From the NCBI RefSeq assembly GCF_000940845.1, contig NZ_CP010341.1:2550001-2582000 (forward strand): 32,000 nucleotides of DNA, read 5' to 3'. This document shows positions 6,057 through 32,000 of the stretch, piece by piece. Under the pieces are notes generated by a model that saw nothing but the letters and a program-made list of their open reading frames with translations, was not told where the DNA came from and did not search any database. This DNA comes from Propionibacterium freudenreichii subsp. freudenreichii (GTDB lineage Bacteria; Actinomycetota; Actinomycetes; Propionibacteriales; Propionibacteriaceae). The first letter of the stretch is position 1, and every line of letters begins with the position of its first letter. The translations under genes were made by a program, and so were the position numbers.

Positions 6057-6060
6057 CTAG

Positions 6061-6111
6061 TGGGCCTACCCTGGTTTTTCGGACACCTGATGTGGCGGGG
6101 CCTGGTGGCCC
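6061..6111. repeat. Left copy of a perfect 51-bp inverted repeat
   Basis: tgggcctaccctggtttttcggacacctgatgtggcggggcctggtggccc is the exact reverse complement of 7733-7783. Confidence 0.95.
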
Positions 6112-6356
6112 TGCCCAGTTGCTCGGACTCGTCGCGGGTGGGAAGGATGCCGGCAACTCGGAACTCGAGAAGGCGGGATCCCATGAGACCGGCGCCGGCT
6201 TCCCCGTTACCTGGCGCACTGACACCGATCACCAGGGCTTCTGAGCCTCGGACGAGTTCAGGGCACTCGACATACCCCAACGACATACCCCAACTCGATC
6301 TGTCGGCCAGACAGTGCATGATGTTCAGAGAAGTCCGACCGAAGGGATCCTCACCC

Positions 6357-7337
6357 ATGCCCAATCCCGTACACGACATCGACGCAGGCGGCCAGCCGAT
6401 GGATAAGTATGACGCTCGAGTATGGAAGTCGCTGAACGAGTTCTGGGAGAAGAAGAGTGATCCCCAGACCCTGACGAACCGAGCCGCCGCGGCGCTTCAG
6501 CACGGCGGTGCAGCTGTCGAAGGAGCCGCCAAGAAGGCCACCGGCGCCATCCCTGAGATGGTGAAACAGCCGATCCGTCACGTCAGTGACGCGGCTGGAG
6601 AGAAAGTCATGGAGCCGGTGGCTAAATCGGTGGTTCACCTGCTCGATCTGGTTAATTCATGGGCCCTCGATCTCAATGATCCGAGCTGGGTCGTGACCCA
6701 CGCGCAAAAGCAGGGGCTGTGCATCGATGCCTTCACCGAGCTGCATGATGCCGATCTCAAGTTCTGCGACAGACTGCTCGATCGCAGTACCTTGACGTGG
6801 CGCACGGTCGGTGCGCTCGAAGGTGGTGCCATGGGTGCTCTCGCAATGGTGCCCATTGCAGGAACTGTCGCCTCAATCAGTGCGGACATCATCGTCATCC
6901 AAGTGCTGAGTACTGCCATAGCTGCCCGGGTGGCGTACTCCTACGGTTTCGACGCGAAGGATCCGGACGAGCAGAGGTTCATCCAGCGTCTCGTGAACCG
7001 AACTTTCATGGCCCAAGCGGCCAAGACGCAGCCGATGGCGCAGGTTGGTAAAGCCGCCGGTGCAATCAAAGGGCGCGTGCACTGGTCCGATAAACTCCGC
7101 AACGATCACCAGATCATCAAGAATCTTGAGAAGCTCATGAATCTCACTGGAACGAATGGTGGGAAGGTCGGCGTCCAGAGTGTCGGAAAAGCTGTTCCAG
7201 TAGTTGGCGTGCTTCTCGGAGCAGGAACGAACTCCGCAGTGCTAGGCAACGTAGCGGCTGATGCCAAGCGTTACTGTCAGACCCGGTTCTTGTGTGAGAA
7301 GTACGGTCTACAAACCCCCTCCGCCTTGGACTTCTAG
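6357..7337 (+). CDS. EcsC-family protein
   Basis: ATG at 6357 preceded by gaaggga. The core GALEGGAMGALAMVPIAGTVASISADIIVIQVLSTAIAARVAYSYGFDAKDPDEQRFIQRLV looks like the EcsC family signature. GC is markedly lower than in the flanks: a manual count of one 60-nt sample gave 28/60. Confidence 0.6.
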   Translation: MPNPVHDIDAGGQPMDKYDARVWKSLNEFWEKKSDPQTLTNRAAAALQHGGAAVEGAAKKATGAIPEMVKQPIRHVSDAAGEKVMEPVAKSVVHLLDLVNSWALDLNDPSWVVTHAQKQGLCIDAFTELHDADLKFCDRLLDRSTLTWRTVGALEGGAMGALAMVPIAGTVASISADIIVIQVLSTAIAARVAYSYGFDAKDPDEQRFIQRLVNRTFMAQAAKTQPMAQVGKAAGAIKGRVHWSDKLRNDHQIIKNLEKLMNLTGTNGGKVGVQSVGKAVPVVGVLLGAGTNSAVLGNVAADAKRYCQTRFLCEKYGLQTPSALDF

Positions 7338-11092: not shown

Positions 11093-13429
11093 TCAGTGGT
11101 GTCGGCGCAGGCGCAGGGAGTTGGTGATGACGCTCACCGAACTGAGGGCCATGGCGGCTGCGGCGATCATCGGGGACAACAGCCAGCCGAAGGCGGGGTA
11201 GAGCACTCCCGCGGCGATCGGAATGCCGATGACGTTGTAGATGAATGCGAACAGCAGGTTCTGCTTGATGTTGCGCATAGTGTCGACGGACAGGTCGCGG
11301 GCCTTGACCAGGGCTGCGAGGTCGCCGCCGAGGAGGGTCACGTCTGCGCTCTCGATGGCGACGTCGGTCCCGGTGCCCATGGCGACGCCAACGTCCGCCC
11401 CGGCCAGGGCAGGGGCGTCGTTGACGCCGTCACCGGCCATCGCGACCGTGTGACCTTGCTCCTGGAACCGCTGGACGTGCCCATGCTTCTGATCCGGAAG
11501 CACGTCCGCGATCACCTCGTCGATGTGGAGCTCGTCGGCGATGGCGTGGGCGGTGGTGGCGTTGTCCCCGGTCAGCATCACGATCCGCATGCCACGGTGA
11601 CGTAGGTCGTCGATGGCCTGGGCGGTGGTGGGCTTGAGTGGGTCGGCGATGGCCAGGATGCTTGCAGGCTGACCATCGACAGTCACGATGACGGCAGTGG
11701 CTCCTTGGCGACGGAAGGCGTCGATGTCGTCGGTCAGGGGGGTCGTGTCGGCATGCTGGGTCGTGAGGAAGGCAGGGCTGCCGACCATGACCTGGTGACC
11801 GTCGACCAATGCTTCGACGCCGCCACCCGGGTGGGCGGTGAATGCAGTGGCGGTCGGTACGGTGACGTCGCGTTCTCGCGCCGCGTCGACGATCGCGCGG
11901 GCCAAGGGATGTTCGGACCCGGACTCGACAGCGGCCGCCATGGCCAGCACGATCTCGGCGTGGTGGCCGGCGACGACCTTCTGGTCGACGAGGCTGGGAT
12001 GGCCCTGGGTCAGGGTCCCGGTCTTGTCGACCACCAGGGTGTCGATCTTCTGCAGTCGTTCGAGTGCTTCGGCGTTCTTGACCAGGACGCCATCGCGGGC
12101 TCCGCGACCAACCCCGACCATGATGGACATGGGTGTGGCAAGGCCAAGCGCGCAAGGGCAGGCGATGATGAGCACGGACACTGCAGCAACGATCGCGAAC
12201 GGTAGCCGGGGCTGTGGCCCGACCGTGGCCCAGACGGCGAAGGTGATCAGTGCGATGCCGATCACGACCGGCACGAACACAGCGGAGATCTTGTCGACGA
12301 GCCCTTGGATGGGGGCTTGGGAACGTTGCGCCTGGGACACGAGGTCGACGATGCGGGCCAGGGTCGAGTCGGCGCCCAGGCCGGTGGCCTCGATGACCAG
12401 GCTGCCGCCGCTGGTGATGGTGCCGCCGATCACACGGTCGCCGGGGTTCTTGTCAACAGGTACCGGCTCGCCGGTGATCATGGATTCGTCGACGTAGGCG
12501 TGGCCGTCGACCACGATGCCGTCTGCTGGGATCTTCTCACCGGGGCGGACCCGGCAATGGTCGCCGACCTGCAGGTCCGCGGATGGCACTTCCTCTTCTT
12601 CTCCGTCGGGGTTGATGCGGTGCGCGGTGGCTGGCGACAGGTCCAGCAGGGCGCGGATGGCACCCGAGGTCTGGTCGCGTGCCCGCAGTTCGAGTACCTG
12701 CCCCAGCAGCACCAGGGTGATGATCACGGCGGTGGCCTCGAAGTAGACGCCGACCCGGCCACCGTCATCACGCATGATGGCCGGGAAGATCCCCGGGGCC
12801 AGGACGGCGACCACACTGTAGAACCACGCGGCACCCACACCGAGGCTGACGAGGGTGAACATGTTGAGGTGCCGGCTGGCCACTGATCGGGCGCCACGTG
12901 CGAAGAATGGCCACCCGGCCCACCACACCACGGGGGTGGACAGCGCGAGTTCGACCCAGGGCACCCACGCCCCGACGGCCAGGGCCGGGACCATCGCCAG
13001 CACCACCAGGGGCAGGCTGAGCACGGCTGCCACGCGGAGACGGCGGCGCATGTCTGCCAGCTCTGGGTTGGGTCCGTCGTGGACGCCCACCGAGACCGGT
13101 TCGAGCGCCATGCCACAGATCGGGCACTCGCCCGGCCCATCCTGCCGGATCTCGGGGTGCATGGGGCAGGTCCATTCGCCATCGCGTGGGCCGGTGTCGG
13201 CCTGTGGTGGCGGGGCGCTTTGCCCGCCGTGCTCTTGGTGGGCAGCAGTCTGCCCGGGGTGGGTGTGCTGGTGTGCTGCTGGCGCGGGGGGCTGTCCGTC
13301 CGGTTGGAGGAACATGCCGCACTTGGGGCAGCGGCCAGGGTGGTCACTGGTGACCTCGGGGTGCATGGGGCAGGTGAAGGAGTCCCCTTCAGCCGTGATG
13401 GGCTCGTCGGGTGGGGTAGGGCTGGTCAT
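11093..13429 (-). CDS. copA: Heavy-metal (Cu+-type) P1B ATPase
   Basis: ATG at 13429 preceded by gaggaag; 778 aa. Motifs present: CPC ([11 protein letters not shown]), DKTGT, SEHPLA and GDGVNDAP. The N-terminus has two CPMHPE...CPxCGM metal-binding motifs instead of MxCxxC HMA domains. The 76 Arg-rich codons upstream in the ORF track are rejected. Confidence 0.9.
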
Positions 13430-13497
13430 GGTCTTCCTCGTCCGTTGAGTGGTGGTGCTCTGTGGTGCTGGTGGGCGCGTGGTGCGAGGTTCTTGGC

Positions 13498-13803
13498 TCA
13501 GTGGTGATCGGCCCCGTGGTTCATCATCCGCATCATGAGCCACATCATCACTACGCAGCCGAGGGCGGGGATGACGGCGGCCATGACGCCGCCTGCGGCG
13601 AGGCTGGCACGACCTGTCCACAGGTATCCGGCCACGATGAGCAGCATCGGGGCACACATCAGCAGGTGCATCCAGTGGTGGCTCTTGCCGTGGCCTGTCA
13701 TCTTCGGGTCGTGCCGGTGCTGCACGGGCTCGAGTACCGGGTCGGCGGCGGGGCGGGGAGCGTCGCTGTCACTGCGGTTGAGCTGGGTGGGGTTTGTGTA
13801 CAT
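13498..13803 (-). CDS. Small His/Met-rich membrane protein (DUF2933-like)
   Basis: Strong RBS aaggag 7 nt before the ATG at 13803. There are two hydrophobic segments. [12 protein letters not shown] and the C-terminal [12 protein letters not shown] resemble the small proteins that accompany actinobacterial copper ATPases. Confidence 0.55.
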
Positions 13804-13933
13804 GGTGGTCTCCTTCGTCGTGTGTGGCTGGCTGCCGTCACCATCCAGACTGTCGAGCGTCCATGAAGCTGGACCGGGGCAAATGATGAAGGTTTGACCA
13901 AGACGTCGGAGGCATGTGCGGGCATGCGGCGGT

Positions 13934-13961
13934 GCGGTTCCCGGGGCGACGCGGGAACCGC
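13934..13961 (-). terminator. Strong stem-loop between the multicopper oxidase and the DUF2933-like/ATPase genes
   Basis: gcggttcccg (13934-13943) pairs with cgggaaccgc (13952-13961): a perfect 10-bp GC-rich stem with an 8-nt loop. It lies 18 nt downstream of the MCO stop on the minus strand. Confidence 0.5.
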
Positions 13962-13978
13962 ATCGGCGTGGGCTGGGG

Positions 13979-15457
13979 TCAGTAGCGCAGGCTGGTCATC
14001 ATGCCGATCTCGGCGTGGTAGATGTTGTGGCAGTGCAGCATCCAGGCTCCGGGGTTGTCGGCCTGCAGGTCGGCCTCGATGGTCTGCATGGGCAGCAGCA
14101 GCACGGTGTCCTTGCGTAGTCCGTTGCTGCCCGGCAGGGACCAGGTGTGGCCGTGGATGTGCATCGGGTGGGCCATCATCGTCATGTTCGTCATCCGCAT
14201 CCGGACCCGCTGTCCCAGGCTGATCGACAGGGGTGTGTCCTCACCGAACTTCTTGCCGTTGATGCCCCAGGCGTAGGGCTTCATCTGGCCGTTGAGCTGG
14301 ACCTCGAGGGTCTGCTCCGGTTCCTTGTCGGGCAGCTTGGCTGCGTCGGCGGCGCGCAGGGCGGTGCCAAGGACAGCCTTTCCTCCGAGTTCGGGGATTC
14401 GGGTGGTGGCCGGCGGAATGCTGCCGGCGCCGGTCTTGACGATGGCGCGGGCGGGAGTACCGGTCTTGCCCTCGGGGGCGGCCTGCAGCACGAAGACGCC
14501 GTCGCCGACGGTGACGGTGGCGTCGATCCTTTCTCCCATGGCGAGGTAGATGGCCGTCGCCTCGACTGGCTGCACGGCGAATCCGTCGGCGTGGGTGATG
14601 GTGAGTCGGTGCCCGGACAGGCCGACCTTGAAGATCGTGTCGGCTCCGGCGTTGATCAGCCGTAGCCGGATCTTGTCTCCGGGGCGTGCCGTGAGGGTGC
14701 GCGGTGCGGCCGGGATCCGGCCGTTGACGACGTAGTGCGGGTAGCTCACGTCTCCGGCATCGCCCAAGGGGGAACTGCCGTGGTCCATGCCTCCCATGTC
14801 GTGGTTCATTCCTTGGGACAGGGGGCCGCTGTTGGCCTTGAAGTCGGCGAAGATCGCATCCGGTGACTTGCCCACCCCATCGGTCCAGTCATCCAGGACC
14901 AGGACCCATTCCGCGTCGTGGTCGCCCGGATCGCGTGGGTCGTCCAGCACGAGGGGAGCGTACAGGCCCCGGTCGATCTGGACTCCGCTGTGGGGATGGA
15001 AGAAGTAGGTTCCGGCATGGGGTGCGACGAACTCGTAGGTGAAGGCACTCTTGGCGGCGATGGGGTCCTGAGTGACACCAGGCACACCGTCGGAGGCGTT
15101 GCGCAGGGCAATGCCGTGCCAGTGCACCGAGGTGGCTGTGGGGAGCTGGTTGTCGACCGTGACCCGGAACAGGTCGCCCGCCTTGCCGCGCAGGACGTTC
15201 CCGTCGAGTTCGTCGGTGTAGGCCCAGGTCTTGGCCAGGACACCGCCCAGGTCCAAGGTGACAGGGCGCGGGGTCAGGGTGTGGGTGACGGTCGTCGCCC
15301 CGGCCGGGGTGGCGAGTGGTGTCTGGGTCGGGATGGCCCATGTGGCCGGGGTGGTGCTGGCCGGGGAGGGCTGCTTGGCGCCGCATGCAGCCAGGGCGCT
15401 GGTGGATGCCAGGCCGAGGCCGGCGAGCAAGGCCTGTCGGCGAGTGATCGTGTTCAT
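13979..15457 (-). CDS. Three-domain multicopper oxidase, Tat-exported lipoprotein
   Basis: Twin-arginine signal TRRQALLAGLGLASTSALAAC with a lipobox Cys. Copper-ligand blocks are HWHGI, HPH, HPMHIHGH and HCHNIYHAEIGMM. Confidence 0.9.
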   Translation of the reverse strand: MNTITRRQALLAGLGLASTSALAACGAKQPSPASTTPATWAIPTQTPLATPAGATTVTHTLTPRPVTLDLGGVLAKTWAYTDELDGNVLRGKAGDLFRVTVDNQLPTATSVHWHGIALRNASDGVPGVTQDPIAAKSAFTYEFVAPHAGTYFFHPHSGVQIDRGLYAPLVLDDPRDPGDHDAEWVLVLDDWTDGVGKSPDAIFADFKANSGPLSQGMNHDMGGMDHGSSPLGDAGDVSYPHYVVNGRIPAAPRTLTARPGDKIRLRLINAGADTIFKVGLSGHRLTITHADGFAVQPVEATAIYLAMGERIDATVTVGDGVFVLQAAPEGKTGTPARAIVKTGAGSIPPATTRIPELGGKAVLGTALRAADAAKLPDKEPEQTLEVQLNGQMKPYAWGINGKKFGEDTPLSISLGQRVRMRMTNMTMMAHPMHIHGHTWSLPGSNGLRKDTVLLLPMQTIEADLQADNPGAWMLHCHNIYHAEIGMMTSLRY

Positions 15458-15492
15458 GCCCCCGACTCTTCCCGCCCCGCATTGTGACCGGG

Positions 15493-16632
15493 TCAGGGAA
15501 GTGTGGAGATTCGATCAAGACTTCGTGGCAGCACCAGGCTGAACGACGCACCGCAGCCCACCCCCGGACTGGCCGCCAGCACGTCGCCCCCATGTGCCCG
15601 GGCGACGGCCCTGGCGATGGTCAGGCCGACTCCGGTTCCGCCGTCGACGTCACGGACCCTGCGTGATCCTTGGTGGAAGAAGCGTTCGAAGACGTGGGGC
15701 ACCTCACCGGCGGGTATGCCTGCGCCGGTGTCGCTGACCTGGATGGACACCGAGTCCGTGTCAGACCAGCTCGTCACACATACCTCACCCCCGCGTGGCG
15801 TGTGCTGGACGGCGTTGCGCAGCAGGTTGTCCAGGACCTGGCCGATGCGTGCAGGGTCGACATCCACCTCCACGGGGCAGTTGCCACGGGTCACCAGCTG
15901 GATACCTGCCTCGGCACAGGCTTTCGCACACGAGGTGACCGCCGATTTCACCAGGTCATCGATGCGGGTCAGCCGTAGTTCCAAGGGGATCCGCCCCTCC
16001 TCTGCCCTGGAGACCTCGGAGATGTCGGCCGCCAGCGCCGTGATGCGCTCGTTCTGGCGTTGGAGGACCTCAAGGACCTCCGGCCCATACACGGCGACTC
16101 CGTCCTCGAGGCTCTCGAGCGTCACCCGCGTCACGGACAGGGGCGTGCGCAGCTCATGGCCAAGATCGGTCCACATGCGTCGTCGGGTGGCCTCCGTGGC
16201 CGCGATCTGGGCCGCCATCCGGTTGAACTCATGGGCCACGGATTCGAGTTCGCGCCCCAGCGGCGGCATGCGCACGGGATCGTCGTAGTTGCCGTGCGCG
16301 ACCCTCTCAGCCCCCTCGGCCAGGGCATCCAGCCCTCGGATGAGGCTGCGGTTCAGCACCCATGACGTCACCGCCGCGATCATCATCGCGGCGGCAAGTC
16401 CCAATCCCAGGGAGGCCGCACCGGCGTCATGGAAGGCACGCTCGGCATGGTCCAGCACCTTGGGCTGGGTGTGCCCGGCCTCGGCCATGTGCTTCTTGAA
16501 CAACGGCGGGCCCATCTCCAGGGCGGTGAGGACCAGCGTGACGCTCATGGTGACCAGGACGGCGAACTGGGTCCACACCAGCCGTCGACCCCACGACAAC
16601 CCGGGCCACAGCTCTGATGGCCGTCCTCCCAT
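15493..16632 (-). CDS. Two-component sensor histidine kinase (HAMP-HisKA-HATPase)
   Basis: H-box LGHELRTPL, with N and G boxes NLLRNAVQHTP and DTGAGIP. There are two TM segments around a 33-residue His/Met-containing loop. The start overlaps the regulator stop (TGATG). Confidence 0.9.
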   Translation of the reverse strand: MGGRPSELWPGLSWGRRLVWTQFAVLVTMSVTLVLTALEMGPPLFKKHMAEAGHTQPKVLDHAERAFHDAGAASLGLGLAAAMMIAAVTSWVLNRSLIRGLDALAEGAERVAHGNYDDPVRMPPLGRELESVAHEFNRMAAQIAATEATRRRMWTDLGHELRTPLSVTRVTLESLEDGVAVYGPEVLEVLQRQNERITALAADISEVSRAEEGRIPLELRLTRIDDLVKSAVTSCAKACAEAGIQLVTRGNCPVEVDVDPARIGQVLDNLLRNAVQHTPRGGEVCVTSWSDTDSVSIQVSDTGAGIPAGEVPHVFERFFHQGSRRVRDVDGGTGVGLTIARAVARAHGGDVLAASPGVGCGASFSLVLPRSLDRISTLP

Positions 16633-23754: not shown

Positions 23755-24942
23755 GTGACCCACACCTCCGGCTCCCCGCAGCGGGAGCACACCAGCAGCA
23801 CGCCCGCGGATGACCGGCCGCCCGCCACCCCCACCGAGGCGGCCACCAGCGGACCCGACATCCCCGTCGGCCTCGACAACGGCCCGGAGGGCCCGGGCGT
23901 CTCCGCGGCGGGGTTCGCGTCCCCCGTGCCCGCGATCGTGGCCGGGATCAGCGAGGCCATCGGGAACACTCCCCTGATCCGTCTGGACTCCCTGTTCCCC
24001 GACTCCGGGGTGGAGATCCTGGCGAAGCTGGAGTCGGTGAACCCGGGCGGCTCCACCAAGGACCGGCCGGCGATGGGCATGGTGCGCGACGCCCTGCAGA
24101 CCGGGCGACTGGCCCCCGGCGGCACCGTGGTGGAGTCCTCCTCCGGCAACCTTGGCGTGGCCCTGGCCCGTGCCTGCAACGCCCACGACGTGCGGTTCGT
24201 GTGCGTGGTCGACGCCCGTACCAACGCCACCACCGTGCGCACCATCCAGGCGCTCGGCGGGGAGATCGACCTGGTGTCCGAGCCCGATCCAGCTACCGGC
24301 GACCTGCTCACCGCCCGCTTCAACCGGGTCAAGGAGCTGCTGGAGGAGATCCCCGATGCGGTGAACCTGTACCAGTACGGCAATCCCGCCAATCCCCGTG
24401 CCCACTACGACGGCACCATGCGGGAGATCGCCGAGGCCACCGGGCACCAGGTGGACGTGCTGATGGCGGCGGTGTCCACGACCGGAACCATCGGCGGCTG
24501 CTCCGCGTACATCCGCGACCACGACATGAGCACCCGCGCGATCGCGGTCGACGCGGTGGGCTCGGTTCTGTTCGGTGGCACCGCCGCGCCCCGCCCCCTG
24601 CCCGGCATGGGTGCGGGCGTGGTCACCGAGCTGTCCCGCCAGGTTCAACCCGATCAGGTGATCCGCGTGGAGGGCCTGGACTGCGTGGTGGGCGCCCGGC
24701 ACCTGGCACGCAGCGAGGGCATCCTGGCCGGGGGCTCCACCGGCGGCATCGTGCATGCCCTGGGCGGGCTGATCCCCAGCCTCGAGCCCGGCACCCGCGT
24801 GGTGTTCGTGGTGCACGACGGCGGCGTTCCCTACCTGGAGACCGTGTACGACGACCAGTGGGTGCGGGAGAACCTCGACGCCGACACGGACGCGATCGCG
24901 GAGGGGATCGAGCAGCTGCGCAGGACCGCCCGCCGTGGCTGA
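23755..24942 (+). CDS. Fold-type II PLP enzyme of the cysteine synthase family (SbnA / Y4xP-like beta-replacement enzyme)
   Basis: IGNTPLIRL, the PLP-lysine block NPGGSTKDRPA, SSSGNLGVALA and the STTGTIGG phosphate loop are present. The N-terminal ~57 residues are Pro/Thr/Ser-rich, so an alternative GTG start at 23926 is possible. Confidence 0.8.
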   Translation: MTHTSGSPQREHTSSTPADDRPPATPTEAATSGPDIPVGLDNGPEGPGVSAAGFASPVPAIVAGISEAIGNTPLIRLDSLFPDSGVEILAKLESVNPGGSTKDRPAMGMVRDALQTGRLAPGGTVVESSSGNLGVALARACNAHDVRFVCVVDARTNATTVRTIQALGGEIDLVSEPDPATGDLLTARFNRVKELLEEIPDAVNLYQYGNPANPRAHYDGTMREIAEATGHQVDVLMAAVSTTGTIGGCSAYIRDHDMSTRAIAVDAVGSVLFGGTAAPRPLPGMGAGVVTELSRQVQPDQVIRVEGLDCVVGARHLARSEGILAGGSTGGIVHALGGLIPSLEPGTRVVFVVHDGGVPYLETVYDDQWVRENLDADTDAIAEGIEQLRRTARRG

Positions 24943-26989
24943 GCAGCCCTCCGTCCGGGCCGGCACGGCCCATCCGGCCCGCAGCGACGGTGCTGCCCGC
25001 CCGATTCGCGACGACCGCACTGCACCGCCCATGGCAGCCGCTGAGACACCGCTTCGCCCGGCCGCCGATGCGCCGCTGCGGCTCGCCGTCGTCGGTGCCG
25101 GACCGAAGGCGCTGTACGCGCTGGAGGAACTGACCGCGCTGCTGGATGCTGCGGGCTCCGCCACGGCCACCGCCGACGACGCGGGAGCTGCGGCCTCCGA
25201 ATCGTCAGCAGCATCCGGCCTGATCGTGACGGTGATCGATCCTGTCGCCGTGCCGGGTACGGGCGCCGCCTACCACTCCGGCCAGCCGCACCACCTGCGG
25301 CTGAACGTGACCGCGGCGATCCTGGATGAGCCCGCCACCGGCGACTTCCCCGCGTACCCCAGTTGGGTGCAGGACCCGTACCCGCAGCTGGCCGACGAGC
25401 CGTACCCGCCGCGCGCGGTGGTCGGCGAGTACCTCGCCCAGCGCTGGCAGCAGATGATCCATGGTCTCTCCCGGCATGCCCGCGTGGAGCACGCCCGGGC
25501 CCGGGTGACGGACCTGCGGCGCGAGGGCAGCGCCTGGCATCTGACCACCGACGCTGCTCCCGCGGACGTCGGCCCGGTGGACGAGGTGCTGATCGCCACC
25601 GGTCACGCCGCTGGCCACCGGGGCGCCCTGGTGCACCACTGGAGTTCACCCCTCCCCCTGGTCCCGGCGGTGCTGCCCGCTGAGCGGATGCTCAGCGCCG
25701 AGCAGGTCCCACCCGGTTCCCGGGTCGCGGTGCGCGGCGGGGCGCTGACCTTCATCGACGCCTGCCTGACCCTCACCGAGGGCCGCGGCGGCACCTTCAC
25801 CGAGAGCACCGAGGTCGACGCGAGCGGCGGCACCGAGGCGGATGTCCCTGCCCGCCTGGTGCACCATCGCGGGCCGCACGAGCCGACCGTGATTCGGCCG
25901 ATCACCCGGCAGGGTCTGCTGCTGGATGCGAAGCCGGACCCGGGATCACCCCTGACCGGGGCCGGCGAGCGCGCCGTCGAGCAGGCCCGCGCCCGATTCA
26001 CCTCCGGCCAGGGCATGGGCCCGGACGCGGTGCTGGCGATCGTGGTCGATGCCGCCACCGCCATGCTCGAGGGGACACCCGCGCCCAAGAAGCACGCCAG
26101 TACCTCGGGACGGGATGCGCGCGACACCGTCGCTGGTTCTCGCGCGGCCGTCGAACACACGCTGAGCACCGGTGCGGAACCCGATCTGCCCCGCGGCGCG
26201 GGGCGCGCCGAGGCGGCGCTGCGTCGCAGTATCGAGACGGCCCAGGGCCACCGCTCGCCCGGTCCGGCCTGGGCGCTGGGTCGCGTGTGGCAGACCCTCT
26301 ACTCCCTGGTCTCCGCCGCCCTGCGCGGCAGCGACGCCCCCGAGGAGGAGTGGGCGCGCTTCCGGCAGGCCGCGCAGGTGCTGGAGCGGTTCGCCTTCGG
26401 CCCTCCGCTGGTCAACGCCCGCAAGCTGCTGGCGATGATCGACTCCGGCGCGGTGGACCTGTCCTGGATGGATGGTGGGACGGGCATCGACGGCAACAGC
26501 ATCCATGTCGCGCCCGTGACCGAGAGCTCCGACGCCACTGCCACCGGCCGGCATGTTGACGCCACTGCCACCGGCCGGCACGACGACGCACCGTCGGGCG
26601 GCGATGTCGACGTGGTGATCGACGCGGTGCTCACCCCGCCCGGTCTGCTGAACCTCACCGACGAGCTGGCGGGGTCGCTGCTGCACCGCGGCCTGGTGCA
26701 GGTGCGGCCCGGCAGGCGGGGGGCGATGATCGACGAGGCCGGCTCCCCCGTCGGCCGCGATGACGCGCCACTGGTCGCCCCCGACGGTCGGACCGTGGCC
26801 GGGCTCGCGCTGATCGGGCGGCCCACAGAGGACCATGTCATCGGCCACGACTCGCTGAACCGCCACCTGCACCACGAGGGCCGATGCTGGGCCCGACGGA
26901 TCGCGGACCGGGTTGCGGGCGTTGACGATGCCGCTCCCGCTGACGCAGCTGTTCCTGCCGCCCCCGCCCCCGCTGTCGCCCCCGAGTGA
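24935..26989 (+). CDS. FAD/NAD(P)-binding protein (PF13454-like), large and uncharacterised
   Basis: The dinucleotide-binding motif LRLAVVGAGPKALYALEEL sits near the N-terminus. GTG 24935 overlaps the upstream stop (GTGGCTGA). An alternative ATG lies at 25031. Confidence 0.6.
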   Translation: MAEQPSVRAGTAHPARSDGAARPIRDDRTAPPMAAAETPLRPAADAPLRLAVVGAGPKALYALEELTALLDAAGSATATADDAGAAASESSAASGLIVTVIDPVAVPGTGAAYHSGQPHHLRLNVTAAILDEPATGDFPAYPSWVQDPYPQLADEPYPPRAVVGEYLAQRWQQMIHGLSRHARVEHARARVTDLRREGSAWHLTTDAAPADVGPVDEVLIATGHAAGHRGALVHHWSSPLPLVPAVLPAERMLSAEQVPPGSRVAVRGGALTFIDACLTLTEGRGGTFTESTEVDASGGTEADVPARLVHHRGPHEPTVIRPITRQGLLLDAKPDPGSPLTGAGERAVEQARARFTSGQGMGPDAVLAIVVDAATAMLEGTPAPKKHASTSGRDARDTVAGSRAAVEHTLSTGAEPDLPRGAGRAEAALRRSIETAQGHRSPGPAWALGRVWQTLYSLVSAALRGSDAPEEEWARFRQAAQVLERFAFGPPLVNARKLLAMIDSGAVDLSWMDGGTGIDGNSIHVAPVTESSDATATGRHVDATATGRHDDAPSGGDVDVVIDAVLTPPGLLNLTDELAGSLLHRGLVQVRPGRRGAMIDEAGSPVGRDDAPLVAPDGRTVAGLALIGRPTEDHVIGHDSLNRHLHHEGRCWARRIADRVAGVDDAAPADAAVPAAPAPAVAPE
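26531..26584 (+). repeat. In-frame 27-bp tandem duplication inside the flavoprotein gene
   Basis: gacgccactgccaccggccggcatgtt is followed by gacgccactgccaccggccggcacgac (24/27 identical), encoding DATATGRHV then DATATGRHD. Confidence 0.9.
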
Positions 26990-28710
26990 GAGGACCTGCC
27001 GTGACCGAGGAACCCACCCTGCGCGAGGCATGCCAGGGAACCCCGCCGCTGTCGGCTCGTCTGGAGCCGTGGATGCAGGAGCTGCTGGCGGACCCTGCGA
27101 CCTGCAGCTCGCTGCTGGAGCGCTACGGAAGCCCGCTGAACGTGCACGACTTTTCCGCGCTGCCGCGCAACGCCGCAGAGCTCACGGAGGTGGCCGAGGG
27201 CTCCGGGGTGGACCTGCGGATCTTCGTGGCACGCAAGGCCAACAAGACCCTCGGCATGGTGCGTGCCGCGCATCGCGCCGGGCTGGGGGTCGACGTGGGC
27301 AGCGAGCGCGAGCTGGGCCAGGTGCTCGAGGCCGGTGTGCCGCCGCATGACGTGGTGGTCACCGCGGCCATCAAGCCCGATCCGGTGCTGCGCCTGGCCC
27401 TGGAGTCCCGCTCACTGCTGGTGCTGGACAACCTCGACGAGGTGGCCGCCTCCCGGAGGGTCGCCGAGCAGGTCACCGGCGCCCGGAGCGCGGAACCAGG
27501 TCGCCCCGCGGACGGGGCCTCTGGTGCCCCCGAGCCGTTCCCCGTGGCGCTGCGCCTCGCGCCCAAGCCCAGCGACCTGATCCCGCCCACCCGCTTCGGG
27601 GAGTCGGCCCGCGCCTGGCTCGAGCTGATCGACTCCGGCGGCCTGGGCGACCTGCTGCGGGTGGACGGTGTGCACTTCCACCTGCACGGCTATGACCCGA
27701 CCGCGCGCGCCACCGCCCTCGGGGAGGCGCTGGAGCTGATCGACGCGCTGCGCGAGCGCGGCCTGGCCCAGGATGGCGCGTTCGTGGACATCGGCGGCGG
27801 CATCCCGATGAGCTACTTGGACGATGCCGAGCAGTGGGACGCCTTCTGGCAGGCCCACGAGCGGCAGGCCCCGGAGTCGGGCCTCGGCGGGGGTGCTCGC
27901 GCGGCCGACGACGACCGGCCCGCGGCTGCCCCCGACGCCGGCGAGGACGCCCCCACCGCCCCGCTGACCTGGCGCCGGGAACCGCTGCGGCAGGTGTACC
28001 CCTACCACCAGCAGGTGATCCGCGGGCCCTGGCTGGAGCGGTTCCTGGGCCACGAGATCCGCCCGGGTGCCACTGCCGGGCAGGCCCTGCGAGAGCGCGG
28101 GGTGCAGCTGCGCTGCGAGCCGGGCCGCTCCATGATGGACGGTTGCGGCATGACGCTGGCGAGGGTCATCCAGCGCACCAGTGCCAGCGACGGCGTGCCC
28201 CTGGTGGGGCTGGAGATGAACCGCACCCAGTGCCGCTCCACCTCCGACGACTTCCTGGTGGACCCGATCCTGGTGCGCACCGGCACACGCGACGATGCCA
28301 CGGATCCGTCGGTCGCCGGTGCCGGGCAGAGCAGGGCGAGCGAACGGTTCGAGGGGTTCCTGGTGGGCGCCTACTGCATCGAGGCCGAGCTGATCCTGCG
28401 TCGGCGCCTCGCGTTCCCGCAGGGTGTGGCCGTGGGCGATGTGATCGCCCTGCCCAACACCGCCGGGTACCTGATGCACATCCTGGAGAGCGCGTCCCAC
28501 CAGATCCCCCTGGCCTCCAACGTGGAGCGCGTCGGCGGTGGGGAGGCAGGCGGATCCGGAGGTGACCACCCCAGCGCAGAGGTGGCGGACCGCAGCAGGA
28601 CGGGCGGCACGGACCACAGCAGCACCGCCGTCGAAGGCAGCGATCCCCGTCCTGATGTGCCCGGGTTCAAGCGCGACGGCATCGACCGGGTGCTGCCCAT
28701 CCGGGCCTGA
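26986..28710 (+). CDS. Type III (alanine racemase-fold) PLP-dependent decarboxylase-like enzyme, Y4yA-like
   Basis: YGSPLNVHD, the PLP-lysine block FVARKANKT, DIGGGIPMSY, CEPGRSMM and the GAYCIE blocks of Orn/DAP/Arg decarboxylase-type enzymes are present. There are long acidic or low-complexity inserts and a C-terminal tail. GTG 26986 overlaps the upstream stop; an alternative GTG at 27001 follows gagagga. Confidence 0.8.
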   Translation: MRGPAVTEEPTLREACQGTPPLSARLEPWMQELLADPATCSSLLERYGSPLNVHDFSALPRNAAELTEVAEGSGVDLRIFVARKANKTLGMVRAAHRAGLGVDVGSERELGQVLEAGVPPHDVVVTAAIKPDPVLRLALESRSLLVLDNLDEVAASRRVAEQVTGARSAEPGRPADGASGAPEPFPVALRLAPKPSDLIPPTRFGESARAWLELIDSGGLGDLLRVDGVHFHLHGYDPTARATALGEALELIDALRERGLAQDGAFVDIGGGIPMSYLDDAEQWDAFWQAHERQAPESGLGGGARAADDDRPAAAPDAGEDAPTAPLTWRREPLRQVYPYHQQVIRGPWLERFLGHEIRPGATAGQALRERGVQLRCEPGRSMMDGCGMTLARVIQRTSASDGVPLVGLEMNRTQCRSTSDDFLVDPILVRTGTRDDATDPSVAGAGQSRASERFEGFLVGAYCIEAELILRRRLAFPQGVAVGDVIALPNTAGYLMHILESASHQIPLASNVERVGGGEAGGSGGDHPSAEVADRSRTGGTDHSSTAVEGSDPRPDVPGFKRDGIDRVLPIRA

Positions 28711-28967: not shown

Positions 28968-30070
28968 CTAGCTGTACTTCCCCGGGAGGTTGTGAACGGG
29001 TGAGGTAGCGAAGACCTCCGGGCAGGATGTGGGTTACCACACTCACTCTCCTGACCACGGAGGTCTTCGTGACTCACGCTAACGCACCCTTGACACCGGA
29101 AGGGCGTCGTCGTCTTGCTGTTCTCGTCGTGGAACAGGGCTGGTCGTTGCGGCGGGCGGCGGAACGGTTCCAGTGCTCGCCCGCGACGGTGAAGCGGTGG
29201 GCCGACAGGTACCGGGCAGGGCTGCCGTTGATCGACCGTAGTTCGAGGCCCACCTCGTCACCGAACCGGCTTTCGCGTAAGACGGAGCATCGGATCGTCG
29301 CGTTGCGGTTCACTCGCCGGTGGGGTCCGCACCGGATCGCGTATCACCTGCGGTTGCACCGTTCCACGGTCGGTCGGGTGCTCGCCCGATACAAGATGCC
29401 GAAGCTGATCAACATCGACCAGGCCACCGGGCTGCCGGTTCGCCGCCCGAAGCCGAAACGGTACGAGGTCGCCGCGCCGGGCCAGCTCGTGCACGTAGAT
29501 ATCAAGAAACAAGGCCGGATCCCCGACGGCGGCGGGTGGCGTGCCCACGGTCGCGGATCCATGCAGGACCGTCACGCGGGAGTGGCCCGCGACAAGGCAG
29601 CCCGTGCCGGGGCAGCCGGCTCTCGCGGCTACCGGTATCTGCACCACGCCGTGGACGACCACTCCCGGATCGCGTACTCAGAGATCCTTGACGACGAGCG
29701 CAAAGAGACCGCAGCGGGGTTCTGGACCCGCGCGAACGCGTTCTTCGCAGGCCTGGGCGTCACAGTCACCGCGGTGATGACCGACAACGGTTCCTGCTAC
29801 CGGTCAGGCGCCTTCGCTGACGCGCTCGGCGACGAGGTGAAGCACAAGTGGACCCGGCCATACCGGCCGCAGACCAACGGCAAGGTCGAGCGGTTCAACC
29901 GGACCCTCGCCGTCGAGTGGGCCTACGCGAAGCCCTACGCCAGCGAAGCCGAGCGCGCCGCAGCCTACGAGACCTGGCTCCATCACTACAATCACCACAG
30001 ACCCCACACCGGGATCGGCGGCCAGACTCCCTCAGCCCGCGTTCACAACGTCACGGGGAAGTACAGCTAG
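28968..30070 (+). mobile_element. IS481-family insertion sequence, copy 2 (a different element from copy 1)
   Basis: IRs: ctgtacttccccgggaggttgtgaacggg (28972-) against the reverse complement of the right end, ctgtacttccccgtgacgttgtgaacgcg (-30066); 26/29 match. CTAG lies outside both ends (28968-28971 and 30067-30070). Confidence 0.85.
29069..30070 (+). CDS. IS481-family DDE transposase
   Basis: GTG at 29069 preceded by ggagg. DDE blocks are LVHVDIKK, VMTDNGSCY and TNGKVERF, with YNHHRPH at the C-terminus. It is only moderately similar to the copy-1 transposase. Confidence 0.9.
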   Translation: MTHANAPLTPEGRRRLAVLVVEQGWSLRRAAERFQCSPATVKRWADRYRAGLPLIDRSSRPTSSPNRLSRKTEHRIVALRFTRRWGPHRIAYHLRLHRSTVGRVLARYKMPKLINIDQATGLPVRRPKPKRYEVAAPGQLVHVDIKKQGRIPDGGGWRAHGRGSMQDRHAGVARDKAARAGAAGSRGYRYLHHAVDDHSRIAYSEILDDERKETAAGFWTRANAFFAGLGVTVTAVMTDNGSCYRSGAFADALGDEVKHKWTRPYRPQTNGKVERFNRTLAVEWAYAKPYASEAERAAAYETWLHHYNHHRPHTGIGGQTPSARVHNVTGKYS

Positions 30071-30073
30071 ACC

Positions 30074-31099
30074 CTAGAACGGTGCCTCGTCGCGTGTCGC
30101 CCACGGGTTCGGGGGCGACGGCGGCAAGGCTCCCCCGGGCAGCGGCAGGTTGGTGACGACGTAGAGGTTCAAGATGTCGTCGCGGTCCATGAACATGATC
30201 TGGCTCCGCTTGCTGGCATCGAGAGCGTTGCCGAGCCAGTTGCGAGCCGCCTTGGTGATCTCCCCGCCCGCCACGATGAAGGCGTGGTCAACCAAGACCC
30301 GGCGGTTGGTCTCAGGATCGAAGATCTCGTGTGCCAGCATCATGAGCGCTTGGTTGTGGATCTCGGCCATGTTGGCGTTGCCGGTCTTGGTGACGCCTGA
30401 GGCGTCGAGCTTGCCCTTCTTAGCCTGGATGCCGAAGTAGAGGATGTGCTGGGTCGGCAAGGTGTAGCGCATCCAGATGTCCTTGCCGTACTCCAGCGCC
30501 TTGTCCTTGTGCCCGGCTGCCGTGATGCGGTGGTAGCCCAACTGTCTGAACAGCGGGAGGAGCACTTCCTCGATGAGATCATCCTCGCTGCACTGGTCGA
30601 GGTAGGCCGTCAAGAGCTGCCGCCGCTCCAGTTCAGCCTTGCTGAAGGGGCGGTGCGGATTGGCGGCAAGGACAGTGACGGTCTGTGTGCCGACGTGGCG
30701 GAGGTAGCAGTGGTTGTCTTCGCCGTAGAACGCCTCGAAACCTTCGCGACCGAGTACCTCGTTGAGTTGTGCCAGCGCACGAGGACGGTCGGGGCCTTCG
30801 TTGAGCCGATCGGCTGGACTCATGAGTTGGTCAATGAGACGGCAGAAGACATCCGGGGGACGTGTGGGGCCGTCATGGGGTTCGGCCAGCATCTGTTCCA
30901 ACACGTCCGCAACCCAGCGATGGCGGGTCGAGCCGTCGTGGTGGAACTCGGTCTCCAACTCTTGAAAGAACTCGGTGATGTACATGCTGGAGCGATACGG
31001 GAAGTACTTGGCTTCGTCCTCGTTTTCGGCGTCGTCACGACCCACGTTGCCCACGATGAGTGACCCGAGGGCTTCGAGGTTGCGGCGACGGAACTTCAC
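30074..31099 (-). CDS. Two-domain protein: unknown N-terminal domain plus a C-terminal Mrr-like restriction endonuclease (PD-(D/E)xK) domain
   Basis: The C-terminal half follows the Mrr_cat layout: helix IEEVLLPLFRQLGY, then EYGKD207IW, then GIQ225AK227KG, then AFIVAGGEITKAARNWL. GTG start at 31099. The stop is 3 nt from the IS481 end. GC is lower than in neighbouring genes (34/60 in one sampled stretch). Confidence 0.6.
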   Translation of the reverse strand: MKFRRRNLEALGSLIVGNVGRDDAENEDEAKYFPYRSSMYITEFFQELETEFHHDGSTRHRWVADVLEQMLAEPHDGPTRPPDVFCRLIDQLMSPADRLNEGPDRPRALAQLNEVLGREGFEAFYGEDNHCYLRHVGTQTVTVLAANPHRPFSKAELERRQLLTAYLDQCSEDDLIEEVLLPLFRQLGYHRITAAGHKDKALEYGKDIWMRYTLPTQHILYFGIQAKKGKLDASGVTKTGNANMAEIHNQALMMLAHEIFDPETNRRVLVDHAFIVAGGEITKAARNWLGNALDASKRSQIMFMDRDDILNLYVVTNLPLPGGALPPSPPNPWATRDEAPF

Positions 31100-31221
31100 G
31101 GGACCATTGTTGCAAGCGGGACCGACAAACGACCGGACTCCGTGGGCTGCGGCTGCACCGTCTGCCCCGGCATGCGGTGCCGCATCGGCTGAGTGTCAGT
31201 GTCACGTGCTCGAATAGACCC

Positions 31222-31983
31222 ATGACTGTGGACGTGCGGCGCGCTGTTCTTGACCGCCTCGGCACTGGAGGTGCCTCGCGCTTTGGCCGCCCATACCTCG
31301 TGGCAACCCTTCACCGGGAAGTTGGCTGTTCCGAGACGGAAGTGTGGGAGGCCTTCTGGGGTCTGGTCGGTGAGGGACTGGTCTACCTCGACACCGCCGG
31401 CCAGGGATCAGGCACTGACAACTGGCAGTGGCACCTATCGACAGATGGCCGAAGGGTGGCTGAGGGCGGCTCCTGGGAGCCACGCGACCCCGACGGCTAC
31501 ATGGATCGGGTTCGACGAGACATCCCCGACTTGGACGAACTCGTGGAACTTTACCTGACAGAGGCGTTGCAGTCGTTCAACGGGCGATGCTACCTCGCCA
31601 CCTCCGTCATGCTTGGAGTCGCCGCAGAACGTGCCTTCCTGGTCATGGCTGCGTCCTACGCCGCCTCTACTGTCTCGGGCGCGCCGGCTATGGCCAAGGA
31701 GTTAGCGCGGCCGCGAAGCAACTACTTCGCCTTGTGGACGGAGTTCCGAAAGCGCATCGAGCCGATCCGCCAGGATCTGCCGGATGGGCTCGCCGACTCT
31801 CTCACGCTGGATGCCATCGCTGACCTGATCCGCCTGACCCGCAACGAGGTTGGCCACCCCACTGGCCGCCAGATTGACGAGGACACCGCTCGAGTTCACC
31901 TGACGATTGCTCCGACATACATGCGGAAGATGCGTGCGCTGACCGTCCACTTCGCCCAGAGGCCGGCGGAGGTGAACGAATGA
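31222..31983 (+). CDS. HEPN-like protein (Rx4H motif) with an unknown N-terminal domain
   Basis: ATG at 31222; 253 aa. The C-terminal alpha-helical region YLTEALQSFNGRCYLATSVMLGVAAERAF...LIRLTRNEVGHPTG contains R207-N-E-V-G-H212 (31840-31857), the HEPN Rx4-6H signature. The gene is transcribed divergently from the nuclease gene. Confidence 0.5.
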   Translation: MTVDVRRAVLDRLGTGGASRFGRPYLVATLHREVGCSETEVWEAFWGLVGEGLVYLDTAGQGSGTDNWQWHLSTDGRRVAEGGSWEPRDPDGYMDRVRRDIPDLDELVELYLTEALQSFNGRCYLATSVMLGVAAERAFLVMAASYAASTVSGAPAMAKELARPRSNYFALWTEFRKRIEPIRQDLPDGLADSLTLDAIADLIRLTRNEVGHPTGRQIDEDTARVHLTIAPTYMRKMRALTVHFAQRPAEVNE

Positions 31984-32000
31984 CGCAACTGCCGATGCCG
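31980..32000 (+). CDS. Start of a third gene, translationally coupled to the HEPN-like gene; truncated by the window end
   Basis: ATG at 31980 overlaps the TGA at 31981-31983 (ATGA). Only MTQLPMP is visible. Confidence 0.35.

Follow-up and report, generated by a model that had tools for sequence, protein, structure and literature searches.

Two genes with predicted nuclease folds stand back to back at the right end of a 32,000-nt stretch of DNA from Propionibacterium freudenreichii subsp. freudenreichii (contig NZ_CP010341.1, positions 2,550,001 to 2,582,000; hereafter the window), and the question that they raise is whether they belong together. Gene A encodes a candidate Mrr-like nuclease and gene B a putative HEPN ribonuclease; a third gene, C, overlaps the end of B and runs off the window, and a helicase gene, D, follows beyond it. 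A preliminary description, made from the sequence of the window, had taken the Mrr-like and HEPN genes as a pair or, with C, as a three-gene system, and the spacer between A and B as their shared control region. We recovered the full locus by an exact-match look-up of B and compared it with related loci. The comparison indicates that A, B-C and D are three independent modules set side by side, a modular architecture that we regard as highly probable. The features of the three genes within the window are the following.

30074 to 31099, minus strand: gene A, 341 aa, GTG start, a candidate nuclease; AbiJ-NTD3-like domain at aa 1-165, Mrr-like PD-QxK domain at aa 166-315 (window 30155-30604), then a linker and an acidic tail
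30077 to 30106, minus strand: the last 10 codons of A, encoding the C-terminal tip PWATRDEAPF, which resembles the actinobacterial tail DDPWG...DDEPPF of SSB, the protein that binds single-stranded DNA
31100 to 31221, no strand: the spacer at the junction of A and B-C, 122 bp
31193 to 31217, plus strand: conserved element upstream of B-C, with TGTCAG at 31194-31199 and then TG-n-TCGAAT at 31207-31215, ending 7 nt 5' of the ATG of B
31222 to 31983, plus strand: gene B, 253 aa, ATG start; predicted winged helix and DUF4145-type HEPN domain
31980 to 32000, plus strand: start of gene C, in ATGA overlap with the stop codon of B and running off the window; in full 486 aa, with an alpha/beta N-terminal region, a beta-rich part at aa 123-226, a coiled-coil helix at aa 267-310, a predicted PD-(D/E)xK domain at aa 313-450 and a basic disordered tail

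We scanned one genome per species with the B alignment and obtained 80 loci, in which A was sought within 10 kb; conversely, 80 metagenomic A loci were inspected for the other genes. A was found at none of the 80 other B loci, and neither B nor C occurred at any of the 80 metagenomic A loci. A lies beside B-C only in this P. freudenreichii lineage, where the same A/B/C/D arrangement was present in every P. freudenreichii-type contig recovered. Homology among B-C loci stops about 40 bp 5' of B and excludes A. The zero adjacency of A and B, together with this limit of homology, indicates that A and B-C are separate modules, and the spacer is then the junction of two unrelated modules and not the shared control region that had been proposed. 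The proposed pairing of the Mrr-like and HEPN genes, alone or within a three-gene system, failed on the same counts. Asked whether the three genes co-occur, the comparison gave a divided answer: B and C do so, in nine of nine intact loci, and A with B-C does not, in 80 loci examined each way. What had been read directly from the letters was correct: the two open reading frames (ORFs) with their motifs and ATGA overlap, the 122-bp spacer and its short repeats, the reduced GC content and the IS481 end 3 nt from A all lie where the preliminary description placed them.

Recovery of the downstream genes, which it had recommended, gave C in full and then D, beyond the window. In P. freudenreichii-type assemblies the gene order is A (minus strand), B, C, a gap of about 280 bp, D (857 aa), a small helix-turn-helix gene and LtrA. 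The full sequence of C was taken from loci L001-L004 and L006. In one P. freudenreichii-type read assembly (L005, 1943-6251), C was split into 358 and 128 aa and D into three ORFs, which reflects either pseudogenisation or an assembly error.

C was the sole recurrent neighbour of B when all ORFs around B were clustered. The 4-nt overlap between them was kept in all nine intact loci in which B is at least 77% identical, so that the coupling of a third gene to B, noted at the outset, is a conserved one. Outside P. freudenreichii, the intact loci with this overlap were those of eight further species of the scan, together with Brevibacterium, Micromonospora chalcea and Curtobacterium. The B family comprises 336 proteins and the C family 221. 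When the ORFs neighbouring B relatives of at most 54% identity were clustered, no recurrent partner appeared, indicating that these distant relatives are stand-alone genes. The same clustering led us to reject a diverged C beside the distant B relatives.

The ~25-bp element in front of B accompanies the cassette. In 11 loci from different genera, the TGTC core and the G, T, A and T of the TG-n-TCGAAT box were invariant or nearly so, the consensus being TGTC(A/G)G ... TG-n-TCGAAT, and conservation was lost beyond about position -40 of B. The element is likely to be a promoter or an operator. We infer from its sequence that TG-n-TCGAAT may be an extended -10 box giving a leaderless B-C mRNA. A scan of positions 29900-32000 for sigma-70 promoters and terminators returned nothing. 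The ATG of B was not preceded by a Shine-Dalgarno sequence. The spacer also carries a palindrome, ATGCGG-tg-CCGCAT, at 31172-31185, and a direct repeat, GTGTCAGTGTCA, followed by CACGTG at 31193-31208; both the palindrome and the GTGTCA repeat had been reported at these positions. The GTGTCAG part of the repeat falls inside the ~25-bp element conserved in the 11 loci. The palindrome was absent 5' of B in every other B-C locus examined; it may be due to chance, and was rejected as a shared operator for want of a counterpart at any of these loci. From these comparisons, B-C is a two-gene cassette that appears to carry its own conserved promoter-like region.

Some loci provide natural disruptions of the cassette. 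In a Brevibacterium casei contig (L089, 1027-3949), an ISL3 transposase splits C while B is intact. In Cellulomonas sp. KRMCY2 and Agromyces protaetiae (L188 and L189, 8500-9010 in each), B is deleted and C is intact; the remnant of B consists of its last ~10 codons or its promoter, and the promoter element can still be recognised in Agromyces. These natural single knock-outs indicate that B and C are not each other's antitoxin. As for surroundings, the cassette has Gabija as its neighbour in Brevibacterium casei and, in Micromonospora, a KAP NTPase and transposases; the C gene that lacks B in Agromyces adjoins a type I restriction-modification (R-M) system.

What activities would the cassette carry? 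The ATG at 31222 gives B a length of 253 aa, the length of most of the B homologues listed, and a longer ORF opening with GTG at 31060 is not used. The AlphaFold2 model of B (mean predicted local distance difference test score, pLDDT, 87) shows a winged helix at aa 5-80 and is all-alpha from aa 106 to 245, the part assigned to the HEPN domain (aa ~104-245). The ~100-aa N-terminal domain had been described as unknown; its existence stands, and the model now supplies a winged helix for most of it. The RNEVGH motif (R207-H212) is encoded at 31840-31857, and R207, N208, G211 and H212 are invariant in 24 homologues. In a wider set of 42 relatives, drawn from many phyla, E136 and G211 never vary, and R207, N208 and H212 are at least 90% conserved. 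B itself gave no profile match in Pfam, nor in PADLOC at E-values up to 1, and a profile search of the PDB with the B alignment gave no credible match. Among the 42 relatives, however, 15 matched DUF4145 (best E-value 1.2e-5), eight HEPN_Apea, four HEPN_Swt1 and two Ribonuc_2-5A, and RiboL-PSP was also matched. Since its relatives match DUF4145, which is a HEPN family (PMC3710099), B is predicted to be a winged-helix/HEPN protein of the DUF4145 type. The original HEPN assignment, made from the Rx4H motif, is thus supported by the conservation of the motif and, consistently though indirectly, by the profile matches of the relatives. Members of the B family were found in Actinobacteria, Acidobacteria, Verrucomicrobia, Planctomycetes, candidate phyla and Archaea. 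Stand-alone relatives of 29-44% identity were seen in archaeal metagenome-assembled genomes (L048, L061 and L081; Bathyarchaeia, Thermoproteota).

C had no match at the sequence level in Pfam, NCBIfam, PADLOC or the PDB. In the alignment of its homologues, D345 (in NADLL) and E358-V-K360 do not vary, and conservation of E325 is at least 90%. The AlphaFold2 model has a pLDDT of 77 for the whole chain and exceeds 90 in the nuclease domain, for which the top Foldseek matches were Hjc/Hje, R.BspD6I, EcoO109I, the R2 endonuclease and RecU, with probabilities of up to 0.97 and weak E-values of 0.02-0.5. The C-terminal domain of C is, on this model, a predicted PD-(D/E)xK nuclease with the arrangement E...D...ExK. 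A profile-profile comparison of the nuclease regions of A and C detected no relation between them.

Gene A proved to be of a different kind. It has more than 3755 homologues. The start MKF(R/K)RRN is shared with homologues, and in 22 of them E178, D207, Q225 and K227 are invariant; in 25 divergent sequences D207, Q225 and K227 remain at least 90% conserved. A itself had no Pfam match. Among the 25 divergent relatives the two most recurrent families were AbiJ_NTD3, matched below threshold by the N-terminal part of four (best E-value 0.0056), and Mrr_cat, matched below threshold over residues ~165-303 by three (best score 18.4 bits, E-value 0.0025). The Pfam gathering score of Mrr_cat is 21 bits, and this threshold was reached neither by the query nor by its relatives. 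Profile searches of the PDB with A alignments, including a deep one, gave no credible match. A is plausibly an Mrr-like nuclease behind an AbiJ-NTD3-like domain, which is the best reading of these matches together with the invariant D...QxK motif. The Mrr layout first proposed for the C-terminal half is made plausible by the invariant motif and by the sub-threshold Mrr_cat matches of relatives and falls short of the Pfam threshold, while the ~170-aa N-terminal domain, which could not be placed before, has gained a candidate identity from the four AbiJ_NTD3 matches.

The C-terminus of A, which is intact, led to a more specific proposal. Behind a variable linker, the A family has a conserved acidic tip; the family consensus, DPW...DEPPF, copies the actinobacterial SSB tail. 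PF is the terminal pair in 117 of 120 close homologues, in 74 of them as part of DEPPF, and 95 of the 120 carry a PW among their last 22 residues. The proteobacterial members terminate like the SSB of their hosts, in DDIPF, DEIPF or DDVPF: for plasmid-borne A proteins the ends are GDDIPF in E. coli, GDDIPF in Klebsiella, TDDIPF in Agrobacterium and ADEIPF in Paracoccus. Among complete metagenomic A tails, 75 of 79 end in PF; those of the actinobacterial-type class (at least 73% identity) end in PPF or (A/T/E)PF and never in [ILVM]PF, which is found in 23 cases of the other class. The SSB C-terminal peptide (SSB-Ct) is a docking site for DinG, RecO, ClpX and many other partners. Mycobacterial SSBs (PDB 1UE1, 3AFP and 1X3E) end in DDPWGSAP...(D/E)(D/E)EPPF, and SsbA of Streptomyces coelicolor ends in DEPPF, a functional docking tip. 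In E. coli, the SSB C-terminal tip is DDDIPF and is bound by DinG (PMC11981726). Phage recombinases also depend on SSB tails. The likeness of A to SSB-Ct thus consists of an end of the form [DE][DE]-(P or I/L/V)-P-F-COOH after a flexible linker and, in Actinobacteria, of a matching upstream (D/N)PW; the difference is that A has no oligonucleotide-binding (OB) fold and is not an SSB. As judged from these ends, the tail of A tracks the SSB tip of the host clade, including the choice between P and I/L/V. In the literature searched, no nuclease or defence protein bearing a mimic of the SSB tail came up; the papers returned were ordinary ones on SSB and the DinG review.

The conservation of A is unevenly distributed along the protein. 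Between P. freudenreichii A and the copy on an E. coli IncF plasmid (L177, 8001-8981), identity is 85% in the catalytic half, 47% in the N-domain and 38% in the linker and tail. The GC content at third codon positions (GC3) is 0.83 for the former gene and 0.49 for the latter, a full codon amelioration, so that the 85% identity does not result from a recent DNA transfer. SSB-tip mimicry could explain this extreme conservation of the family.

We also examined where A occurs. The plasmids carrying it numbered 47, of which 25 are conjugative, and belonged to Actinobacteria, Alphaproteobacteria and Enterobacteriaceae; on IncF plasmids it adjoins vapBC. Its distribution in E. coli is patchy (191 of 5426 complete genomes), with WP_073521305.1 and WP_023147794.1 among the homologues of that species; examples of its sites there are a Qin-like prophage slot (a moron slot) and a CP4-type island beside Gabija. 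Elsewhere its neighbours include CBASS with methyltransferases, Wadjet, SNIPE, CoiA and HEPN genes, and R-M systems, and it also occurs within an actinomycete integrative conjugative element. In Ensifer it lies near the repair genes xth, ligD and imuA and an SOS-associated peptidase, and in Corynebacterium directly 3' of a MobF relaxase gene. The neighbours differ from locus to locus and there is no fixed partner. No A homologue was found in a phage collection. These results indicate that A stands alone as a gene and that, in various phyla, it is carried by plasmids, prophages and defence islands.

DEAD and Helicase_C_2 domains are present in D, which is DinG-like, with only weak similarity to CasDinG or to DinG. 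It matched the PADLOC model PDC-S28 (E-value 4.2e-94) over residues 11-853, against positions 14-841 of the 846 in the model. From its PADLOC name we take PDC-S28 to be a single-gene candidate; in the literature searched it is named once, in a survey of Bacillus cereus group defence systems. D accompanies B-C in two of about 11 evaluable loci, those of P. freudenreichii and Nocardioides lijunqiniae; the D protein of the latter is 70% identical and stands in the same B-C-D order and orientation. Elsewhere D usually stands by itself; on Rhodococcus and Mycobacterium plasmids it was found alone or 3' of a type I R-M system.

D-like helicases were also seen beside A. In Nocardia abscessus (L093/L094, 5369-9029) a helicase of 77% identity lies next to A on the same strand, frameshifted near residue 730, and on an Ensifer plasmid (L184, 1130-4996) one of 27% identity lies next to A in divergent orientation. 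Such a helicase adjoins A in two further, metagenomic loci (L131 and L148), that is, in two of the 80 metagenomic A loci. Suggestive as it is, this adjacency occurs too seldom for a system to be defined from it. A Hachiman-like pair of D and A was considered and rejected as a general rule, as neither protein matched the PADLOC Hachiman models and the adjacency is confined to a few loci.

How far can these genes nevertheless be joined into larger systems? The claim that A, B and C, with D, are one multi-gene defence system under a shared divergent control region draws on the adjacent and divergent position of A and B, on the real overlap of B with C and on an arrangement common to all P. freudenreichii-type contigs recovered. 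It can also point to the D-like helicases that sometimes lie beside A or B-C, to the fusion of HEPN (DUF4145), restriction-endonuclease and superfamily 2 helicase modules in other proteins (PMC3710099), and to the binding of E. coli DinG to the very SSB tip that the tail of A resembles (PMC11981726). It is nonetheless very improbable, in view of the absence of A from all 80 other B loci and of B and C from all 80 other A loci, of an A family about ten times larger than those of B and C (more than 3755 members against 336 and 221), of the end of conservation 5' of B before A is reached, and of the lack of B-C in all four actinobacterial, all plasmid and all E. coli contexts of A. A smaller combination, in which B-C-D would be a three-gene HEPN/nuclease/helicase machine in a subset of genomes and the two-gene B-C loci its reduced forms, seems improbable to us. 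The shared order and orientation in P. freudenreichii and Nocardioides lijunqiniae, with D proteins 70% identical, and the fusion of the same three domain types in other proteins (PMC3710099) agree with it; yet D is missing 3' of C in about nine of the 11 evaluable loci, occurs without B-C on Rhodococcus and Mycobacterium plasmids and beside A in Nocardia, is separated from C by 160-280 bp, which argues against translational coupling, and is modelled by PADLOC as the candidate PDC-S28.

The separate modules could still serve ends other than defence. We see little likelihood that B-C serves to stabilise mobile DNA as a toxin-antitoxin or addiction cassette, with the HEPN RNase as toxin and the winged helix as autoregulator. 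HEPN toxins are common in toxin-antitoxin systems (PMC3710099), the coupling of B and C is tight, the upstream element is operator-like and conserved, and the cassette is found with mobile DNA. Against this, B persists where C is disrupted and C where B is deleted, so that neither gene depends on the other for its neutralisation; C, at 486 aa a nuclease-like protein of several domains, is unlike known antitoxins; and the distant B relatives stand alone, with no conserved partner. An alternative that we consider unlikely, although it deserves more weight, concerns A: instead of an immune effector, it would be a conserved nuclease of mobile elements, of a DNA-processing or repair type, its SSB-like tail joining it to host replication and recombination complexes, for example in the DNA metabolism of conjugative elements or prophages. 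The 85% identity of the catalytic half between P. freudenreichii and E. coli despite their GC3 values fits this alternative, as do the frequency of A on plasmids (25 of the 47 conjugative), the repair genes and SOS-associated peptidase near it in Ensifer and its place after the relaxase gene in Corynebacterium. It accords less well with the repeated position of A beside CBASS, Wadjet, Gabija and R-M systems and in the prophage moron slot, with its patchy presence in E. coli, with an N-domain of a type that is fused to conflict effectors and with the lack of fixed partner genes.

Comparison with known systems shows which parts of the three modules are familiar. None of A, B and C matches a named system in the Pfam, NCBIfam and PADLOC scans, as had been anticipated, and D corresponds to the PADLOC candidate PDC-S28. 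A PHROGs scan gave nothing significant for A, B or C. A resembles type IV enzymes of the Mrr group (Mrr_cat, PF04471) in its D...QxK residues, which follow in the expected helix-strand order, in having no cognate methyltransferase and in standing alone. It differs from them by its sub-threshold profile matches, its SSB-like acidic tail and its far higher conservation across phyla; moreover, Mrr has its own N-terminal DNA-binding domain, whereas the N-domain of A is weakly AbiJ-NTD3-like. In this respect A recalls the AbiJ-NTD fusions described by Anantharaman et al. 2013 (PMC3710099), which join an AbiJ-type N-domain to an effector of restriction-endonuclease fold. In those fusions, however, AbiJ-NTD3 goes with DUF2726 and AbiJ-NTD1/2 with MRR-type domains, a combination different from that of A, no SSB-like tail is described, and the match of A to AbiJ_NTD3 is weak (best E-value 0.0056).

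For B, the closest comparison is RAZR/PD-T7-4, a zinc-finger and DUF4145 HEPN RNase that acts as a single-gene abortive infection system (PMC13017515). Both have a DUF4145-type HEPN domain (predicted in B) with the catalytic R and H of Rx4-6H, an N-terminal recognition domain, a small two-domain size and a defence-island setting. RAZR has a Cys4 zinc ribbon where B has a winged helix, and is a single gene, whereas B is coupled to the large PD-(D/E)xK protein C; B, in addition, matched no PADLOC model. BxaP (PMC10799925) and Ishtar1 (bioRxiv 10.64898/2026.07.06.735840) are experimentally supported single-gene immunity proteins with DUF4145 HEPN domains. Like B they are compact defence-island genes with this domain as presumed effector, but their HEPN domain is N-terminal, followed by a HEAT-like (BxaP) or beta-rich (Ishtar1) C-terminus, so that the domain order of B differs, and they have no nuclease partner. 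The modelled C-terminal domain of C superimposes on archaeal Hjc/Hje resolvases and type II restriction enzymes, with which it shares the E...D...ExK motif, but C has about 310 additional N-terminal residues forming the beta-rich domains and the coiled coil.

On balance, the best explanation of the locus is probably that of three candidate defence modules side by side, each with a proposed mechanism. A defence-island reading is reasonable for all three. We hold their immune function with moderate confidence, and the detailed mechanisms with low to moderate confidence. In A, the AbiJ-NTD3-like N-domain would act as sensor and the Mrr-like PD-QxK domain would cut DNA. The tip of the tail might occupy the SSB-tail pockets of helicases or of recombination or replication factors, and these SSB partners would bring A to the single-stranded, SSB-coated intermediates of DNA from an invading phage or plasmid; in another version, foreign proteins that hijack SSB might bind the tip as a decoy or bait and thereby unleash the nuclease. 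In the cassette, the HEPN domains of B would dimerise into an Rx4H RNase that, once activated, stops translation and causes abortive infection, while its winged helix may bind DNA in order to autoregulate at the TGTCAG element or to sense. In C, the coiled coil would bring about dimerisation, the PD-(D/E)xK domain would cut DNA and the N-terminal beta-rich domains would act as sensor. D would be a separate helicase-based candidate.

Several observations weigh against this explanation. The Mrr and AbiJ-NTD3 labels of A come from sub-threshold profile matches and a motif. A whole-chain Foldseek search of B against the PDB and BFVD gave only MarR/PadR-type winged helices and no HEPN structure, and the Foldseek E-values for the predicted nuclease domain of C (0.02-0.5) are weak. 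An identity of 85% is unusual for a defence nuclease, and A may have a different, conserved cellular role. Finally, the adjacencies of A and D, together with B-C-D in Nocardioides lijunqiniae, make some functional cross-talk between modules possible.

A bolder formulation, to which we give tentative credence at most, is that the A family is a host-matched SSB-tip-mimic nuclease of mobile elements and defence islands and, separately, that B-C is a new two-gene cassette of a HEPN RNase and a PD-(D/E)xK DNase. If this were true, the locus would hold two uncharacterised immunity candidates in which known effector folds are put to use in a new organisation. B-C could then show how RNA-cutting and DNA-cutting activities are coordinated. 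The A family would be the weightier of the two, because the SSB tail is a recruitment hub for replication, repair and recombination proteins: a copy of this tail would be a new route by which a nuclease of an immune system or a mobile element finds its target or its trigger, and would link an immune effector to the replisome interactome in a manner not described before. As A is found in E. coli (191 of 5426 complete genomes) and on IncF plasmids, the idea is testable in a standard host. Had the neighbouring genes of a single genome been taken as one system, all three modules would have been misdefined.

The left side of the locus is bounded by a mobile element, whose features are as follows.

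28968 to 30070, plus strand: IS481-family insertion sequence (Pfam rve_3, rve and LZ_Tnp_IS481), which bounds the island on the left
28968 to 28998 and 30040 to 30070: its inverted repeats, 31 nt each, 94% complementary
29027 to 30070, plus strand: the IS481 transposase

Its right end lies 3 nt from the stop codon of A, and in several cases assemblies are broken at this element. The GC content is 0.63 at the A-B block, against 0.67-0.74 upstream. No methyltransferase was found within the A-D block, in agreement with the earlier remark that this is not a classical R-M unit, and no tRNA or Rfam RNA was found in the window. The end of the window is probably the left part of an accessory mosaic island of about 6.3 kb beside the IS481 copy. 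A mobile or defence-island setting had been proposed from the window alone, and the neighbours of A and B-C in other genomes (Gabija, CBASS, Wadjet, transposases and plasmids) bear it out.

The remainder of the window is ordinary. A gene for an EcsC-family protein lies at 6060-7337, where the GC content dips locally to 0.59-0.62, and a copper-resistance cluster at 11093-16632 comprises a P-type ATPase with heavy-metal-binding domains, a multicopper oxidase and a HAMP/HisKA sensor kinase. An operon of GC content 0.74 at 23755-28710, encoding a pyridoxal phosphate (PLP)-dependent enzyme, an FAD/NAD(P)-binding protein and a protein of the Orn/Arg-decarboxylase family, stops about 260 bp short of the IS481 element's left end.

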